A stretch of DNA of 64,000 nt from a virus (IMGVR_UViG_3300025154_000056:32001-96000), one strand, 5' to 3'; shown: positions 43,435 through 62,888, counted from the first letter of the stretch. Notes: generated from the sequence alone by a model not told the origin. Made by a program: numbers and translations.

Positions 43435-43490
43435 CCCCGCAACCCTAAGAGTCTGCGAATTCAGACTCAACGAACGAAAGGTAATTGAAA

Positions 43491-44612
43491 ATGCGACGCG
43501 GACTGGCTGCTGTAAAGCAGGTCAAAGAAGAGATGGATCAGAATGCTGGGGCGAATAGCTACGTCCCTCATTTCACTCTGGAGGACGGTGAGTCAGCCAT
43601 CGTTGGACTCACAGGAGACAGGGACCAAGAACCTGTAATCCTCGAAGAGCACAGTATCAAGCAAGGGAACAACTTCACCACCATCATCTGTAGTGCGGAC
43701 CGACCCAAGTTCAAGGGGAAGTGCGTTTCTTGCCACACGAATGCGAGTGGCAATAGGCAGGTGAACCGGACCAACAATAGAGCCGCGTTCAATGTGTACG
43801 ATTTCCGACTCGTGCATCCTGTGAAGAACAAGGAGAAGTCGAAGAAGTACGGGCGTGACATTTTTGACAAGGTTCTTTGCACAGGAGAGGTGAAGTGCAA
43901 GCGCTGTCGGAACGGGAAGGAACCAGAGTACTGGGGTGAGAAGCAGTGGAAGCTGTCTATGACCTGGGCGGCTATCTTGGCTGCTCTCAATGACGATGAG
44001 CGTGCTAGGTGCAAGTGTGGCGGCAAGATCACCGTTACTGGGTACCTGGACCCAGAAAACGACAAGGTCTACAAGCATGTCGATGAGGATATGGACACGG
44101 ACGGGTTTGAGGAGATCCTCGAATGCTCCAAGTGCGAGGAGCCTGACCCGTACACCATCTTTGACTTTCCAATCAAGGTGAGGCGTAGCGGTAAAAACAA
44201 GTCCACTGCGTATGCAATCAGTATTGTCAAGGACGACCCTGAGATACAAGAGATCTTCGACGCCCTAAAGGAAGATGGTGAATTGAAGCCCGCTGACTTG
44301 GAGAAGATCAACTCTCCCCTGTCTCTGCAAAAACAAGCTGAGCTTATCGGCGTGGTCAACCCCTACAGCAGCAAGTCCGACCGCTCGGAAGACTATGACG
44401 ATGACGAGGAGGAGGATGATTACGAAGAGACCGAGGATGAAGACGACGACATGATGGAGGACGAAGATGAAGATGAAGATGATGAGGATGATGACGATGA
44501 CGATGACGAAGATGATCCTCCTCGCCGCCCTGCTACTCGTCGAGGTACGAAGAAGAAGGCTGCTAAGAAGCCCACCAAAGGTGCGAAGCGTAGCCTCAGA
44601 CTGAAGAAGTGA
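43491..44612 (+). CDS. gp32-like single-stranded DNA-binding protein with Zn-binding Cys clusters, acidic tract and basic tail
   Basis: F.LEDGESA.V, C...CVSC, FNVYD, IKVRRSG...T.Y; long D/E tract; between primase and polymerase (alternative TTG start 43485). Confidence 0.75.
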   Translation: MRRGLAAVKQVKEEMDQNAGANSYVPHFTLEDGESAIVGLTGDRDQEPVILEEHSIKQGNNFTTIICSADRPKFKGKCVSCHTNASGNRQVNRTNNRAAFNVYDFRLVHPVKNKEKSKKYGRDIFDKVLCTGEVKCKRCRNGKEPEYWGEKQWKLSMTWAAILAALNDDERARCKCGGKITVTGYLDPENDKVYKHVDEDMDTDGFEEILECSKCEEPDPYTIFDFPIKVRRSGKNKSTAYAISIVKDDPEIQEIFDALKEDGELKPADLEKINSPLSLQKQAELIGVVNPYSSKSDRSEDYDDDEEEDDYEETEDEDDDMMEDEDEDEDDEDDDDDDDEDDPPRRPATRRGTKKKAAKKPTKGAKRSLRLKK

Positions 44613-44971
44613 TGGAACGTCTCCGACCATTTTTCGATGACCTGTGGCGCTGGTCTGTTGGCGCTGAGCGACGTCTCAATAGTAGAGTATGGGTGGATCC
44701 TGACAAGCAGTGGAGCCACGCCTTTGAGGGTGCTATGCGCCGTCGCATCCTTGTCGGGGCTTACCGTTACGGTCCGTTGGGGGCGACTGGCAAGCCCAGG
44801 TACGACCGAATGGGCAGCATCATTAGCAGAGCTGCTGAGTACCAGCGAACAGGCAATCTAGAGCTGCTAGTCGACATCGCGAATCTTTGCCTGCTGGAGT
44901 TCGTGGAGGGAAAGCACCCTAAGAGGCACTTCCACGCCCAGGACGACAGTAAACACGTGGAGGTATTGTAA
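44612..44971 (+). CDS. Hypothetical protein, possible all-alpha nucleotide pyrophosphohydrolase
   Basis: GAYRYG...TGNLELLVDIANLCLLEF resembles MazG-like/dATP-dGTP diphosphohydrolase motifs. Confidence 0.45.
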   Translation: MERLRPFFDDLWRWSVGAERRLNSRVWVDPDKQWSHAFEGAMRRRILVGAYRYGPLGATGKPRYDRMGSIISRAAEYQRTGNLELLVDIANLCLLEFVEGKHPKRHFHAQDDSKHVEVL

Positions 44972-45219
44972 TGAGCGAAGAGAGGGTGATCAGTCTGAGC
45001 GCTGCTATGGGTAAGGTACACAAGGAAGTCTGTGAGTGTGCGCAAGACAATAGCCTCATATACGATTACGGTAGAATCAGACTGTGCTTGATTTGTGGGC
45101 AGGCATACTCTGAGATGAAATACCAGGCTGCAAAAAACAGAATCCCGTCATGCAGTGCAGAGTACTTGGGCGAGAAGTACAAGCTGGCTGACGGGTCCTT
45201 CGTTCTGGTTACGAAATGA
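44971..45219 (+). CDS. Small Cys-containing hypothetical protein
   Basis: CEC...CLICG; GGAGG RBS. Confidence 0.55.
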   Translation: MSEERVISLSAAMGKVHKEVCECAQDNSLIYDYGRIRLCLICGQAYSEMKYQAAKNRIPSCSAEYLGEKYKLADGSFVLVTK

Positions 45220-45251
45220 GGCGGTTCAATCTACTGTACGTGGAGGGGTGA
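45216..45251 (+). pseudogene. Orphaned original 5' end of the MT-A70 methyltransferase (MRRFNLLYVEG*)
   Basis: 8 of first 9 residues identical to the start of the 45732 gene; ATGA-coupled to upstream gene. Confidence 0.8.
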
Positions 45252-45252
45252 A

Positions 45253-45735
45253 ATGGGTCGTCCGTTCGGCACACGTAGGAGACTGGCTGACCGTTTCTGG
45301 GAAAAGGTAGACGTCCGAGGACCGGACGACTGCTGGGAGTGGACAGCTAGTCTAAACCCCAAGGGGTACGGACAAATCTCCGTAGGAAGGAAGCCCATAT
45401 CGGCGCATATACTATCTTACGAAATGAACGTGGACCCAGTACCCGAAAACATGCTTGTCTGTCACACGTGTGACAACAGAAAGTGTGTCAATCCCAAGCA
45501 CCTGTATGTTGGGACACCGAAGAGCAACTCCCAGGATATGGTGGATAGGGGCCGTAGCGGCCGTAGCACTATAGGTGAAAAGAATCCAGCGGCTAAATTG
45601 ACTGAACTTGATGTACTAAAAATTCGTAGCTTAGTGGCAGGTGGGTTGTCTAGGCTTGAAGTAGCTACTGTATTTGGTGTGCAAATAGGCGCAGTAGGTA
45701 AGATAGTCAGGCGAGAGAGGTGGAAGCACGTATGA
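45253..45735 (+). mobile_element. Free-standing HNH homing endonuclease with C-terminal HTH
   Basis: RFWEKV...CWEW...GYG...AH...VCHTCDNRKCVNPKHL..GT...N..D; AT-richer 3' half. Confidence 0.92.
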
Positions 45736-46325
45736 GACAATTTAATTTATTGTATGTGGATCCACCATGGCAGTACCAAAGTAAGCGCACTGGCGGGTCC
45801 ATGTCTAGCGGCTCTGACCAGCAGTACGAAACAATATCCACAAAGGAATTGTTGACTACGTCCATAGAGCCCCTCTGCATGGACGATGCATACCTGTGTC
45901 TGTGGGCTACAGTGCCCATGATGGAGGAAGCTTTCGCCTTGATGCGTCAATGGGACTTTACTTATAAGACGAAGCTTAGCTGGCGGAAAAAGCAAGCTAG
46001 ACTAGGTATGGGTTACTACTTTCGAGGAGAGGTGGAAGACCTACTGCTAGGAGTGCGCGGCAAGGTGAAGGCCCCCAGGGTCCAGGAACGAAACTGGATA
46101 GACCCACCCCCGACCAAGCATTCTCGGAAGCCAGAAGAGATGCGTCTGTTGGTGGAGAAGGCAGCCATCAACTCTTTCGGCAAGAGCAAGGTACGTGCGC
46201 TGGAGATGTTCGCCACACACAAAGAGGGTAAAGGAGTATTGGATTGGTCTTATTGGGGTAACACAATAGAGTCAGACATAGTGTTCGATATATTGAAGCG
46301 TAAGCGCTTCCTACTGAGGGCGTAA
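45732..46325 (+). CDS. MT-A70 family adenine methyltransferase
   Basis: YVDPPW, LCLWAT, W.F.Y...W.K, GMGYYFRG..E.LL.G.RG, HSRKP, LEMFA. Confidence 0.92.
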   Translation: MRQFNLLYVDPPWQYQSKRTGGSMSSGSDQQYETISTKELLTTSIEPLCMDDAYLCLWATVPMMEEAFALMRQWDFTYKTKLSWRKKQARLGMGYYFRGEVEDLLLGVRGKVKAPRVQERNWIDPPPTKHSRKPEEMRLLVEKAAINSFGKSKVRALEMFATHKEGKGVLDWSYWGNTIESDIVFDILKRKRFLLRA

Positions 46326-48460
46326 TGCGGCTCAGGCTTATCTCTCCTCCGATGACTACCGCCATTGTGAAGTGGCAGCAGGGCGAGCTTGACTTCTCCA
46401 CGCCCAAAAGCGTGGTGACGTACAGGCTGCGCAAGTCAGCGAAGTCTACGTTCCTATCCTTTGAGCAGAAGCACCCACACTGCATCGTAGCTGACACACC
46501 AAAGAAGGTGGCAAAAGCACTTGCTCTAATGGAGCGAGTACCACTCCTCGGGTTCGACGTTGAGACCATTGGCTCAGATGTCGGTGAGGAGCACCCAATT
46601 GGTAAGGCTAAGGTGCTGTCACTCCAGTTGGCTGGTCGAGTCGACGGGGTGATGTGGGCTGTCTTCGTACCCAACTGGGGCAAGTACGCAGGCACTCTGC
46701 GGAAATTCAAGGCGCTCCTTGAGGGCGACAAAGACAAAACTGCCCACAACGGTAAGTACGACATCCACGCTTTGTTGAACCACGGCGTCTCAGTCGATGG
46801 GTTCCTCCACGATACGCTAATTACTGACAAGCTATTCGCAACACAAGAGATGCTGCATGGCTTGAAGGAATGCATGCGTAGGTACTTCGGTAGGGATGCA
46901 AAGGATTACAAGGAAGTCTTCAAGACTCCGTACATCAAGAAGAACGGTCAGCCAGGCAAGCGCATGGTGCTCCAGCCGCTTGAAGAAGTCATCAAGACTC
47001 AGGCTGGCATCTGGAAGCTGATCGACTACGCCATAAAAGACCCAATCTATTCTGTAGAGCTAGCTGAATACCTACAGAAGAAGCTTGAGAAGGTGGAGTG
47101 GAGCAAGCGTGGATCCTACTGGGACTACTACGTAGGATTCGAAGAGCCTTTCATTCGTGTGTTGGTAGATGTCGAGCGCAACGGCATGTACATCGACCAG
47201 CCCAAACTAAATGCCATTCGTGTAGAGATAGAGGAGGCGCTCACCAAAGCTGAGTGGGCGTTTATGAAGGCGTGTGTTTCTGCTGGAGTCCCAGCAGAGT
47301 TCATGGAGTCCTTCAACCTCAACTCGCAAAAGCAACTGGCTGCATTGTTCCAGAAGCTTGGTGCGAAGATTGTTGACCTCACACCCACTGGGCTACCCAA
47401 AGTCGATGAGGCGTCTCTCAAGAAGATCAAGGGTGGCAAGAAGGTCAAGAAGGTCATCAAAGCACTGCTAGAGTGCAGACGACTGCTCAAGAGCCTCACC
47501 ACCTACGTTGACCCGCTGCTCAAGTACAGCAAAGAGTATGGCGGGCGAGTACACACTGATCTGAAGCATGCTGGCACAGCCACCTGGCGGCTGTCGTCTG
47601 CAAATCCAAACTTCCAAAATGTGCCCACAGGGGCAAAGGATACGTACTCCATACGTGGGTGCATCATCGCTGAATTCTCAACCCACGTGATCGCAGACAT
47701 CGACTTGTCACAGATTGAGATGCGTCTAATGGCGCACTTCAGTCGAGACAAGCGGATGCTGCAAGCTATCAGAGACGGTTGGGATCTCCACTCCCTCGCG
47801 GCGTGGAACCTAGCACAGCACGGACTCTTCCCGGAGATCAAGGCGCACTTCGGTGCTAGAGAGCTAAGCAAAGAGGTCCTGGCTGAGCTGGCTGAGGTGT
47901 TCCCAGACCAGCGTAAGAAAGCAAAGACTATCAATTTCGGCGTGGGTTACGGTATGGGGCCGACCCGCTACGCAGTGATGACTGGGTCCTCCATGGACGA
48001 GGGACGCAGGGCCATTCAAGCGTTCTTCAAGGGCTTCCCAGGGCTCAAATACAACATCGAGAATGTACGCAAGTACGCTCATGAGCACGGGCACATCCGT
48101 ACCCTGCTGCGTAAGTACGTTGGTATCCCGTTCATCAATCACCCCGATGAAGGGCTGCGCGCTGCTGGTGAGAGGCAGGCATACAACTACCTGATTCAAG
48201 GGAGTGCAGCAGAGCTACTCAAGATGAGTATGATTCTAATCCACAATGATGAGGTGCTGCGTGGTCTAGGTGTCAAGATGATCATGCAGATTCATGACGA
48301 GCTTCTGTTCGAGATGCCTCTGGCATCTATGGCTGAAGCTACGCCCATCATCGAGGACTACGTCAGCCACCCATACAGGTACTTCGGGATGAAAGACCTT
48401 CTGGTGGATACACCGGCTGACCTCGGCAGTGGCATTTCTTGGGCAGAAGCGAAGCACTGA
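46325..48460 (+). CDS. polA: Family A DNA polymerase with 3'-5' exonuclease
   Basis: FDVET, HNGKYD, YAIKD; RLSSANPNFQN; DLSQIEMR; KTINFGVGYG; QIHDELLFE. Confidence 0.96.
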   Translation: MRLRLISPPMTTAIVKWQQGELDFSTPKSVVTYRLRKSAKSTFLSFEQKHPHCIVADTPKKVAKALALMERVPLLGFDVETIGSDVGEEHPIGKAKVLSLQLAGRVDGVMWAVFVPNWGKYAGTLRKFKALLEGDKDKTAHNGKYDIHALLNHGVSVDGFLHDTLITDKLFATQEMLHGLKECMRRYFGRDAKDYKEVFKTPYIKKNGQPGKRMVLQPLEEVIKTQAGIWKLIDYAIKDPIYSVELAEYLQKKLEKVEWSKRGSYWDYYVGFEEPFIRVLVDVERNGMYIDQPKLNAIRVEIEEALTKAEWAFMKACVSAGVPAEFMESFNLNSQKQLAALFQKLGAKIVDLTPTGLPKVDEASLKKIKGGKKVKKVIKALLECRRLLKSLTTYVDPLLKYSKEYGGRVHTDLKHAGTATWRLSSANPNFQNVPTGAKDTYSIRGCIIAEFSTHVIADIDLSQIEMRLMAHFSRDKRMLQAIRDGWDLHSLAAWNLAQHGLFPEIKAHFGARELSKEVLAELAEVFPDQRKKAKTINFGVGYGMGPTRYAVMTGSSMDEGRRAIQAFFKGFPGLKYNIENVRKYAHEHGHIRTLLRKYVGIPFINHPDEGLRAAGERQAYNYLIQGSAAELLKMSMILIHNDEVLRGLGVKMIMQIHDELLFEMPLASMAEATPIIEDYVSHPYRYFGMKDLLVDTPADLGSGISWAEAKH

Positions 48461-60134: not shown

Positions 60135-60554
60135 ATGAAACGGAGTCGGATGAATGCGAGAAGCAACCCGAACCGCACCAACCCCGACTTCTGGTGGGTG
60201 GAAGTCGATGGCAAAAAGACTTGGACAGGGCCCGTGTCGAACGCAGAGTGGGCTGCCAAGTTCAGTAAGGTGCAGGGTTACAAACAAGCACCACAATATA
60301 ACCTGTGCTGGGCCTCGAACGAGATGCGGCATCAGGACGTGTGCGCCGCGAAGCTCTACGAAGAGTGCGACCGGTGCAATGTCAACAGGTTGTATAAGTA
60401 CAGATTGCCAGTGAAATCGGAGCTGGTGTTCAGATTCAACGCACTCGTTGAAATAATAGCTCTGGAGACACGGCGGAAGGGTGCTAAATTGCGGAGTCCA
60501 ATATTCCGCTTGACACTGAAAAACATCGGACGTAAATTGGCTGGACCAAAGTGA
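60135..60554 (+). CDS. Hypothetical protein
   Basis: GGAGGT RBS before ATG 60135. Confidence 0.6.
   Translation: MKRSRMNARSNPNRTNPDFWWVEVDGKKTWTGPVSNAEWAAKFSKVQGYKQAPQYNLCWASNEMRHQDVCAAKLYEECDRCNVNRLYKYRLPVKSELVFRFNALVEIIALETRRKGAKLRSPIFRLTLKNIGRKLAGPK
60510..60538 (+). promoter_or_regulatory. Sigma70-like promoter for the H1-like operon
   Basis: TTGACA-17-TAAATT. Confidence 0.65.
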
Positions 60555-60590
60555 ACGGACATTTTCCCCCGTCACAAGGAGACGTATATC

Positions 60591-61100
60591 ATGGCAGTGA
60601 AGAAGACAGCGAAGAAGAGCACGAAGAAGACGGCCACCAAGAAGACCACCAAGAAGGCAGCGCCCAAGACGGAGAAGAAGGCGACCAAGAAGGTGGCTGA
60701 GCCCAAGAAGGCGACCAAGAAGGCAGCAGCGGAGCCCAAGAAGGCCACGAAGAAGGCGACCAAGAAGATCACCCCGAAGAAGCCCGCTGAGGTCACCAAG
60801 AAGGCAGCAACGAAGAAGGAACCCAAGGAGAAGGCTGCCCGCAAGGGGCGCCCGAGTGCCATGCTGGCGTGGTCCGACGTCAGCGACAAGGCAAAGAAGC
60901 TGATCACCAAGGTGGAAGGCTTCGAGGAGCAGATCGAGCAGCTCAAGAAGGACATCTCTGACACGCTGACGAACCTCATGGATACAATGGACGCTGCTTC
61001 TTTTGACCATCCGAAGCGCGGTCCGCTGTCTATCATGGTGCGGGGGGATCTGACTTACTGGCGTGCGAAGCCGGTTGGCCGTGCTGGGGGTAAGAAGTAA
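60591..61100 (+). CDS. Histone H1-like protein (KKAT/KKAA repeats) with small C-terminal folded domain
   Basis: AAGGAG RBS; about 85 aa of K/A/T/P/E repeats, then coiled coil and short beta segment. Confidence 0.8.
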   Translation: MAVKKTAKKSTKKTATKKTTKKAAPKTEKKATKKVAEPKKATKKAAAEPKKATKKATKKITPKKPAEVTKKAATKKEPKEKAARKGRPSAMLAWSDVSDKAKKLITKVEGFEEQIEQLKKDISDTLTNLMDTMDAASFDHPKRGPLSIMVRGDLTYWRAKPVGRAGGKK

Positions 61101-61113
61101 GGGGGCTTGGTGG

Positions 61114-61383
61114 ATGATCTTCCGGCTCAAGATCACAAAGAGGCTTCCGGGTCACTGGGTAAAAGCCTCTAGCACTTGCCGGTTCGAAAGTATCGCCACC
61201 AAGTTTGAGAGGGGGAAAGTCGCATCTCTTTTGTATGAGCATGTTGTACAGATAAGAGAGCGGCGACGCGGTGGTATCTGGGTTCGACTAATTGAACCTA
61301 CTAGTTCGTGGGACAGAGAGTTACTTGATGTCAGCTTTGAAGATGCTGGTATCACAATAGAAAGGGATGAAGCACATGGCTAA
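61114..61383 (+). CDS. Hypothetical protein starting MIFRLKI
   Basis: Fills gap; overlaps start of next gene. Confidence 0.55.
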   Translation: MIFRLKITKRLPGHWVKASSTCRFESIATKFERGKVASLLYEHVVQIRERRRGGIWVRLIEPTSSWDRELLDVSFEDAGITIERDEAHG

Positions 61384-62401
61384 CAACAACGGTAAATACG
61401 AAGACATGCCTCTCTCCGAGCTTCGCAAGCTGGCGAAGAGCCTGAAGGTCAATCCTTCTGGAAAGGGTCGCAACATGCTCATTCGAGCAATTCAGAAGGC
61501 TCAATTGGCGAAGGAAGGGAAGTCGACGGCGGCAGACCCCGGTGCGTCGAAGCGCGCAGCTACCAAGAAGCCCGCAGCGACGAAGGCTACTGCCACCAAG
61601 AAGCCCGCTGCCAAGGCAAAGAAGGAAGAGCCCGAAGAGGAAGAGGACGACCTTGCCACCCTCGTGAAGAAGCTGACGAAGGAGGTCGCCAAGCTCGGCA
61701 AGCGGCTGGATGCGCTGGAGGAGGCAGAGCCTGAGACCGAAGAGGAAGAGGAGGAGCCCGAGGAGGAGGACGCAGAGGAAGCCGCCGAGGACGAAGAGGA
61801 AGAGGAAGAAGAGACCGAGGAGGAGGAAGAAGAAGAGACTGAGGACGAAGAAGAGGAGGAGGAGGAGTCCGAGGAAGAGGCTGAGGAAGAGGAGTCCGAG
61901 GAGGAGGAAGAGGACGAGCCCGAAGAGGAGGAGGAAGAAGAGACGGTTGATATCAGCCTCGCTGAGATTGAATCCGCGAAGCTCGACCGGCTCACCGAAG
62001 TCGCGAACTTGATCAACACCAATGGTGGCAAGATCAAGCTGACAAAGAAGACTGAGGTATTGCGTCAGTCGATCGTCAACTTCCTGCAGGAGAATGCGGA
62101 GAAGGTGGTCGAGGATGCCCCCGCGTCGAAGGAAACTCCCGCTGACAACAGCGGAGAGGTGTACGAGGTGGGCGACAAGGTGGAGGTGATGTTCCTGGAC
62201 GAAGACGAGGCAGAGGTCTGGGAAGAAGGCACCGTGGTGAAGATCAAGAAGAACGTCGTGGTCGTCGACATCGGTGACGGGGAAGTCGCCGACGCTCCGT
62301 TCGACTCGGTTCGTCGCCCGGCGAAGAAGAAGGCTACCAAGAAGCCCGCAGCGAAGCCTGCGGCTACGAAGAAGGCCACGAAGAAGACCACCAAGAAGTG
62401 A
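61376..62401 (+). CDS. Multidomain acidic/basic protein: Rho-N/HeH-like, KKPAA repeats, coiled coil, Glu tract, Tudor/SH3-like barrel
   Basis: MPLSELRKLAKSL.V...G.....LI.AI; long E tract; YEVGDKVEV...W.EGTVVKI....VVV...DG......SVRRP. Confidence 0.75.
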   Translation: MANNNGKYEDMPLSELRKLAKSLKVNPSGKGRNMLIRAIQKAQLAKEGKSTAADPGASKRAATKKPAATKATATKKPAAKAKKEEPEEEEDDLATLVKKLTKEVAKLGKRLDALEEAEPETEEEEEEPEEEDAEEAAEDEEEEEEETEEEEEEETEDEEEEEEESEEEAEEEESEEEEEDEPEEEEEEETVDISLAEIESAKLDRLTEVANLINTNGGKIKLTKKTEVLRQSIVNFLQENAEKVVEDAPASKETPADNSGEVYEVGDKVEVMFLDEDEAEVWEEGTVVKIKKNVVVVDIGDGEVADAPFDSVRRPAKKKATKKPAAKPAATKKATKKTTKK

Positions 62402-62421
62402 ACTACGCGTGACTCTGACCT

Positions 62422-62463
62422 AAGCGCTGCGTCCCTCAACAGGGGCCAGCGCTTTCGTCTTTT
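62422..62463 (+). terminator. Probable intrinsic terminator
   Basis: AAGCGCTG..CCC-loop-GGG..CAGCGCTT followed by TCGTCTTTT. Confidence 0.6.
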
Positions 62464-62477
62464 GGAGGGAGTTGAGA

Positions 62478-62888
62478 ATGGAGATGACAGTAATGACGAA
62501 GTACCGTATTGATGAGTTCGCAGGGTTCAGGTTCGTACTTTGCCTACGGCAAGGAGGAATACTTGTACAGCATGGTCTGGTTGGTATGAACTGCACGAAG
62601 GGGATAGTAAGCCTCACCAAGGGAGTGAGTCTACGTGACAGTCACTGGAGTCTGTATAATGATTTACAGCTCAATGACACAATGTTTATTGTGCTGTACG
62701 ACAACCAAAACGTACCAAGAACTAGGTTCGAATTTAGGTATGCTGAGGCGTACGCTTGTGGCTTGCAGTGCGATGCCATGAGCGCGGCACCAGCCTTGTT
62801 TGTAGTTGAGCTTCGTGGGGCAAAGCTCATAGATCAAAGAGTGTTGACTGAAGAGGAAACGGAGCAACTGAAGGAGGTTGGGGAATGA
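62478..62888 (+). CDS. Hypothetical protein
   Basis: GGAGGGAG RBS. Confidence 0.55.
   Translation: MEMTVMTKYRIDEFAGFRFVLCLRQGGILVQHGLVGMNCTKGIVSLTKGVSLRDSHWSLYNDLQLNDTMFIVLYDNQNVPRTRFEFRYAEAYACGLQCDAMSAAPALFVVELRGAKLIDQRVLTEEETEQLKEVGE

Follow-up and report, generated by a model that had tools for sequence, protein, structure and literature searches.

We analyzed a 64,000-nucleotide stretch of viral DNA (IMGVR_UViG_3300025154_000056:32001-96000, hereafter the window) in which a gene for an HNH endonuclease lies between two versions of the start of a DNA methyltransferase gene. The window comes from a viral contig of 104 kb in IMG/VR with a G+C content of 53%, and the same phage is present in a groundwater metagenome assembly. 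The genes around the finding are all encoded on the + strand. They comprise, in order, a primase-like gene, a gene for a protein with a long acidic tail, a 120-residue open reading frame (ORF), an 82-residue ORF, an 11-codon ORF, the HNH_3 endonuclease gene, an MT-A70 methyltransferase gene, and a DNA polymerase I gene. Table 1 lists the features that bear on our interpretation. The 82-residue product has a zinc-finger match in Pfam that is weak and below threshold. The MT-A70 domain match covers residues 4-163 of the 197-residue methyltransferase.

Table 1. Features at the interrupted methyltransferase start, in window coordinates
Feature	Position	Strand	Basis or remark
Small Cys-rich (zinc-ribbon-like) gene, 82 aa	44971-45219	+	ORF list; native left flank
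Orphaned native methyltransferase 5' end, 11-codon ORF	45216-45251	+	Repeat copy = 45216-45244
Shine-Dalgarno-like GGAGGGG for the HNH gene	45242-45248	+	Read from the sequence; ends 4 nt short of the HNH ATG (45253)
Free-standing HNH_3 (His-Me finger) endonuclease gene, 160 aa	45253-45735	+	Pfam HNH_3
Foreign, probably donor-derived methyltransferase 5' tract	45732-45825, right end approximate	+	Includes the downstream repeat copy, 45732-45760
Intact hybrid MT-A70 (DPPW) DNA methyltransferase gene, 197 aa	45732-46325	+	Pfam MT-A70, 5.8e-18
DNA polymerase I gene, native right flank	46325-48460	+	Pfam DNA_pol_A on the identical gene in L106

Overlapping stop and start codons couple the ORFs at this locus. 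The TGA of the 82-residue ORF overlaps the ATG of the 11-codon ORF at 45216, and the TGA of the HNH gene overlaps the methyltransferase ATG at 45732. An initial reading of the DNA, made from the sequence alone (the sequence-only reading), had proposed that both gene starts keep this ATGA coupling, and both overlaps are real. The 11-codon frame closes with a TGA at 45249-45251, one base ahead of the HNH ATG. The same reading took the short upstream ORF to be the source of the HNH ribosome-binding site. This holds in part: the ORF provides translational coupling and the first three bases of GGAGGGG, and the remaining bases come from the insert, so that the motif spans the junction. The ribosome-binding site of the methyltransferase gene, GGTGGA, sits within the last codons of the HNH gene. 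A scan for promoters and terminators found no feature specific to the insert.

The two gene-start copies are 29 nt long and begin at 45216 and 45732. Their offset of 516 nt corresponds to 172 codons, so they are in frame with one another. They match at 22/29 positions. All seven differences are transitions, with G/C upstream and A/T downstream. Five of them are isolated synonymous changes, and the other two fall within one codon and convert Arg to Gln. Similarity stops after the second base of the Asp codon of the DPPW motif, and no identical run between the copies exceeds 5 nt. These coordinates and counts reproduce those of the sequence-only reading, which had also placed the end of similarity inside the Asp codon. 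We considered the transitions as a possible signature of deamination and dropped this idea, since synonymous changes in two-fold degenerate codons must be transitions; the uniform class of the seven changes is largely forced by such codons.

The end of the repeat coincides with a further sequence feature. The Val-Asp-Pro-Pro codons of the resident allele (45753-45762) form a perfect 10-bp palindrome with a GGATCC site, centred where repeat similarity ends. The two close relatives described below do not have this palindrome; C replaces T at its centre. In a predicted RNA fold, the 3' end of the HNH gene, which holds the GGTGGA ribosome-binding site, can pair with the right half of the palindrome.

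As bare nucleotides, the two copies would attract little attention. We shuffled the window five times and counted 22/29 matches within 1 kb; about one such pair is expected per window (0-1 in each of the five shuffles), and four other pairs of this kind occur in the window outside low-complexity DNA. The significance of the repeat comes instead from its position at ATGA gene boundaries, its frame, the synonymy of its differences and, above all, from relatives that lack the HNH gene. The arrangement is also not an artefact of assembly. An independent groundwater assembly (L106) is identical to the window over 45150-45800, and a contig from another sample (L103) has the same junction between the HNH and methyltransferase genes. 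The exact HNH protein occurs on 17 contigs, and the layout is the same in all 17.

We searched 5.8 billion proteins and found two close relatives of the methyltransferase, P0002 on contig L101 and P0003 on contig L102, which are 83% and 71% identical to the window protein, respectively. Both contigs are syntenic with the window in that they carry a small gene, a methyltransferase gene, and a polymerase gene (79% and 66% identical to the window polymerase in L101 and L102, respectively), and neither has an HNH gene. In both, the TGA of the small gene overlaps the methyltransferase ATG, and the DPPW codons follow directly after codon 9 without interruption. The sequence-only reading had predicted exactly this contiguous arrangement for HNH-free relatives, and its proposal that the HNH gene was inserted into a methyltransferase gene at the DPPW codons is borne out by these empty sites. 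The interrupted gene is of the MT-A70 family, and the insertion lies in its 5' end. The small Cys-rich gene of the window is 42% identical to an 84-residue counterpart at the same position in L101. The window methyltransferase has the same length as P0002, which makes the hybrid gene full length. The distribution of the HNH gene is thus patchy, as it is missing from the same site in both close relatives. A nucleotide search of 50,697 phage records returned no match, and no cultured relative was found; methyltransferase relatives in IMG/VR are at most 36% identical; and an MT-A70 gene is present in none of 61 IMG/VR loci with relatives of the HNH gene.

The empty sites allowed us to ask which of the two gene starts belongs to the resident phage. 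The upstream copy (45216-45244), which we call the orphan, matches the gene starts of L101 and L102 at 24/29 positions each, near the gene-wide level of 80%, whereas the downstream copy (45732-45760) matches each of them at 19/29, a contrast that rests on few sites. The orphan is written in common codons, as is normal for this genome. Rare codons mark the downstream copy, among them TTA, which makes up 3% of Leu codons, and its codons 2-9 have the lowest G+C among 129 genes. These data show that the upstream copy is the native remnant, and they support the view that the downstream copy arrived with the insert.

The abnormal sequence does not end with the repeat. In a three-way comparison, substitutions private to the window numbered 17 in the first 90 nt of the methyltransferase gene versus 44 in the next 501 nt (Fisher p 0.007). 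The same 5' concentration was significant when tested against L102-specific changes (p 6e-5), and L101 and L102 are unusually alike across the first 90 nt. A maximum chi-square analysis placed a change-point at 45822-45828 (chi-square 15.3, permutation p 0.0025), with 18/26 informative sites window-specific to its left versus 43/146 to its right. Beyond the repeat, the abnormal tract includes amino-acid changes and transversions. Directly right of the change-point, the window and L101 are nearly identical at the nucleotide level, and this near-identical stretch beyond about 45825 would be a natural place for a crossover. The tract together with the 3' half of the HNH gene has a G+C content at third codon positions of 0.45, within the lowest 4.6% of the genome's 100-codon windows, a modest signal that is suggestive only.

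The foreign block runs from about 45245 to 45825 and is best read as the HNH gene plus about 30 codons of a diverged, related methyltransferase gene. With the abnormal tract reaching about 45825, the replacement start would be some 90 nt from a diverged donor gene and not an exact, recoded duplicate of 29 nt. The sequence-only reading had proposed that the insert repairs its host gene by bringing a recoded N-terminus. Our results agree that the downstream copy came with the insert; the term "recoded" does not fit a tract of about 90 nt with amino-acid changes and transversions, and is better replaced by "foreign, co-converted, about 90 nt".

The inserted gene has the hallmarks of an intact HNH_3 endonuclease gene. 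Its product scores 31.9 bits against Pfam HNH_3 (cut-off 24.8) and matches endonuclease families in PHROG, down to 6e-34. We judged conservation from a 41-sequence alignment of the family. The protein keeps all nine invariant residues (C27, W28, W30, G38, H71, C73, C78, N92, and L116) and 19/22 nearly invariant residues, with departures at positions 52, 83, and 101. Its catalytic and zinc-binding residues are retained. An AlphaFold2 model with a predicted local distance difference test score (pLDDT) of 92 shows a His-Me finger domain followed by a three-helix C-terminal domain. A separate DNA-binding domain is predicted from helices at 118-152 (pLDDT > 90), and residues 103-154 match a helix-turn-helix DNA-binding family in PHROG. 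A sequence search of the PDB returned no match at E up to 1. The top structural match in the PDB is I-HmuI (1U3E; probability 0.99, with a weak Foldseek E of 5.5e-3), followed by I-PpoI. The gene is single-copy and is the only HNH_3, HNH, or GIY-YIG gene found on the 104-kb contig. We take these data to show that the HNH gene is intact in its coding sequence.

Members of the protein's family abound in phages, where a search matched 1,654 records. In Kayfunavirus phages, represented by Salmonella phage ST20 (L104, 2483-2932) and Escherichia phage SD6 (L105), a 40%-identical HNH gene separates gp15 from gp16 and extends 19 nt into the start of gp16. In SD6 this gene carries no annotation.

We consider it probable, if by no means certain, that an HNH_3 homing gene entered the first 29 nt of the MT-A70 gene in one block with about 30 codons of a diverged donor methyltransferase that lay directly downstream of it in the donor. 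The Kayfunavirus endonuclease gene lies directly upstream of its neighbouring gene, and we assume the same layout for the donor. In a mixed infection, the enzyme would cut or nick the allele that lacks the HNH gene, either at the DPPW codons or immediately 3' of them; the break is placed there because a left junction cannot form to the right of it. The right-hand end of the break would invade the donor's homologous methyltransferase gene, with a crossover near 45825, in sequence that hardly varies at the nucleotide level within this clade, and synthesis would copy the donor gene start and the HNH gene. The left junction would arise when the broken end of the recipient was joined illegitimately, probably through a microhomology, leaving the recipient's first 29 nt as the orphan. 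The outcome would be an intact methyltransferase gene translationally coupled to the HNH stop codon, and an orphan that keeps its native coupling to the upstream gene and passes ribosomes on to the HNH gene. One-sided-homology repair of a break near the DPPW codons, a form of homing across a species boundary, is the likely origin of the locus.

Such an insertion would be stable. The old target is split, and the new copy is changed at 7/29 positions and at two third positions of the DPPW codons, so the hybrid gene would be expected to be immune to the enzyme. Recombinational deletion of the insert is unlikely because the copies share no run longer than 5 nt.

Several observations weigh against this explanation or limit it. 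Besides the few sites behind the contrast between the two copies and the modest compositional signal, both the activity of the HNH protein and its cutting at the methyltransferase site are inferred from sequence. The nearest HNH protein among the 5.8 billion searched is at most 50% identical, and no donor was found. We also found no near-isogenic empty site, in which the orphan would be directly joined to the DPPW codons, in metagenome or viral contigs. With neither of these in the collections, both the donor and a microhomology at the left junction are postulated parts of the mechanism. Finally, the 82-residue upstream gene is also unusually diverged, with the window as the outlier of the three-way comparison (40 window-specific sites versus 28 and 20), and its 42% protein identity compares with 83% for the methyltransferase and 79% for the polymerase. 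This gene may evolve rapidly, or an exchange may have brought it in along with the endonuclease. Its divergence means that the whole unit, including the orphan, may have arisen at an earlier time in a different lineage and reached this phage through ordinary two-sided homing.

We looked for the same layout at other loci by scanning the 61 IMG/VR loci with HNH relatives and comparing the DNA just upstream of each endonuclease gene with that just downstream. Three loci stood out. In the first (L046, 1930-3372; HNH 43% identical), an orphan start of a C5-cytosine methyltransferase gene extends through motif I and is followed by the HNH gene and then by a full methyltransferase gene. Over 20 shared codons, the orphan and the replacement start have 4 identical codons, 16 synonymous differences, and 0 non-synonymous differences. 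That N-terminus hardly varies within a very large family whose members share only about 60% identity overall. A diverged donor explains the recoded look of this locus without special recoding. The methyltransferase frame here can be read from the orphan ATG (1930) through the out-of-frame HNH gene, a span of 164 codons, before it meets a lone TAA at 2422-2424; it resumes, unshifted, at a GTG at 2425. The arrangement closely resembles the published "hidden HNH" of ShiLan, to which we return below.

In the second locus (L045, 1879-2896; HNH 39% identical), an orphan signal-peptide start (1879-2007) is ATGA-coupled to an HNH gene, which ends in the same 15 nt as the window HNH gene and is itself ATGA-coupled to a gene for a secreted transglycosylase-like protein (from 2558). 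The orphan and replacement N-termini differ strongly at the protein level. Recoding cannot explain such divergence, and the replacement must come from another homologue. The third locus (L094, 2590-3335) has a GIY-YIG gene that shares the C-terminal helix-turn-helix domain of the window HNH protein. It is flanked by a direct repeat matching at 26/27 positions, which covers the last codons and stop of the upstream gene and a TTGACA promoter-like site. We raise the tentative idea, for which the odds seem to us somewhat short of even, that this HNH_3 clade routinely travels as a two-part cassette made of the endonuclease gene and the translationally coupled first codons of its target gene.

We weighed the favoured origin, one-sided repair from a diverged donor, against four other explanations. 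The most serious is that insertion duplicated the 29-nt target in situ and that the downstream copy later gained synonymous G/C-to-A/T changes, favoured by selection because they gave immunity to cleavage, protected the insert from deletion through the repeat, or kept the translation start open. All seven differences between the copies do run in one direction, and 8/9 residues are kept. The downstream copy is also slightly less structured around its start, with a folding energy of -19.6 versus -22.4 kcal/mol for the orphan and an unpaired probability of 0.44 versus 0.38; these differences are small. The transition bias that would seem to favour recoding is forced by two-fold degenerate codons. 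The abnormal tract continues for about 60 nt past the repeat with non-synonymous changes and transversions, and the protein-level divergence at the signal-peptide locus (L045) goes beyond what recoding gives. To our knowledge, no homing route makes a 29-nt target duplication. We judge this explanation unlikely.

A second alternative accepts the insertion as described and holds that the HNH gene no longer homes, having become a static fossil in neutral decay or a domesticated nuclease with another role in the phage. This would fit with its being the sole endonuclease of its kind in the genome, with the identical layout of all 17 HNH-bearing contigs, and with our failure to find a polymorphic empty site. 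The uninterrupted ORF, the retention of every invariant and of 19/22 nearly invariant residues, and the high-confidence predicted fold argue against this alternative. The absence of the gene from close relatives fits a recent gain. We therefore regard a static gene as quite unlikely, and the element may still be mobile today.

It is very improbable that the HNH gene belongs to a self-splicing element, with the two copies as the exon or extein edges of a group I intron or intein. Relatives of the nuclease such as I-HmuI are intron-encoded, and the insert length of 516 nt is a multiple of three, as this explanation would have it. An Rfam scan of 44800-46500, however, matched no family at E up to 1. 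The HNH ORF fills all but about 33 nt of the insert, and no position in the repeat combines a U at the exon end with a G at the intron end, as group I introns require. An intein is excluded because a TGA ends the methyltransferase frame after 11 codons and the HNH gene reads in a different one. No intron is detectable at the locus, and the methyltransferase has its own ATG and ribosome-binding site, in agreement with the sequence-only reading, which had called the insert non-splicing. Lastly, that the upstream 29 nt are an unrelated spacer and the HNH gene merely sits between two genes has a negligible chance of being right: shuffled windows do yield about one match of this quality, but both copies start at an ATGA boundary, in frame and with the same residue at 8/9 positions, and the upstream copy's 24/29 match to the real gene starts of L101 and L102 contradicts a chance resemblance.

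We compared the window element to known mobile endonuclease systems. Mobile ORFs (mORFs) of fungal mitochondria bring a foreign gene end with them, and the native end stays behind as an orphan that is closer to relatives (PMC3630166). The resulting "gene hybrids" include atp6 of Allomyces macrogynus and atp6, atp9, cox2, and nad3 of Glomus (PMC3630166), and partial duplications of atp6 and cob have been described beside endonuclease ORFs (PMC6279837). Like these, the window has an endonuclease free of introns and inteins in a protein gene, which travels with a foreign gene end and leaves the hybrid gene whole and a native orphan closer to relatives. The mORFs are mitochondrial, replace the C-terminus, encode LAGLIDADG or GIY-YIG enzymes, and are often in frame with the host gene. 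In the window, by contrast, the host is a phage, the N-terminus is replaced, the HNH_3 gene is in another frame, and three ORFs are coupled by stop/start overlaps. The window element thus works like the mORF gene hybrids but is not a member of the described set; its logic is a mirror image of theirs.

Homing experiments in phage T4 supply the likely repair route. When one exon lacks homology, T4 introns home in a one-sided manner by illegitimate repair, with junctions at microhomologies (PMC2988022). The stand-alone endonucleases of T4 resemble the window element in that they adjoin a conserved gene, are missing in close relatives, have co-converted flanks, and give microhomology junctions when homology is one-sided. 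They differ in that they normally lie between genes without an orphan gene start, and in that the one-sided events were made in the laboratory. The window appears to be the natural product of such an event, apparently fixed in a phage population.

Two further systems share parts of the arrangement. I-HmuI from Bacillus phage SPO1 (1U3E) is likewise built from an HNH/His-Me finger nuclease domain with a helical DNA-binding domain after it, but it is a nickase encoded by a group I intron, and its identity to the window HNH protein is only 17%. The "hidden" HNH of ShiLan type lies out of frame inside a mycobacteriophage DNA methylase gene with no detectable splicing element (PMC11855218). There, the methylase frame stays open throughout the insert and neither end of the gene occurs twice, whereas in the window the frame is closed after 11 codons and translation restarts from a replacement N-terminus. 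Within a literature coverage that is incomplete, we found no report of a phage in which an orphaned gene start adjoins a homing endonuclease. The principle is already known from fungal mitochondria, and the phage version is the part for which no published case was found.

If our interpretation is correct, a selfish endonuclease can occupy active-site codons without splicing by bringing a substitute gene start. The locus resembles what one-sided, illegitimate break repair yields in T4 experiments, here apparently produced in nature, and it offers a concrete way for short gene pieces to pass between diverged phages. Standard annotation pipelines would miss both the 11-codon orphan and the hybrid origin of the methyltransferase. 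The natural empty-site alleles and the two loci of like build (L045 and L046) make the case directly testable. Should the two-part cassette prove to be a habit of the clade, it would let HNH_3 endonucleases colonise the most conserved phage coding sequences with no need of an intron or intein. Whenever the cassette moved from one phage to a diverged one, it would swap the target's N-terminus and leave an orphan start driving endonuclease expression. This would be a general, still active route to mosaic phage N-termini and to the spread of endonucleases across species boundaries.

Two other regions of the window drew our attention during the repeat analysis. The gene for the acidic-tailed protein upstream of the locus is a 375-residue ORF (43485-44612) whose product has several Cys pairs and a C-terminal run of about 60 residues that are nearly all Asp or Glu, followed by a Lys/Arg-rich tail; its low-complexity DNA yields many spurious repeat matches. 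Far downstream, the region at 60500-62500 contains dense, short, in-frame direct repeats with periods that are multiples of 3, and these dominate a repeat scan of the window.

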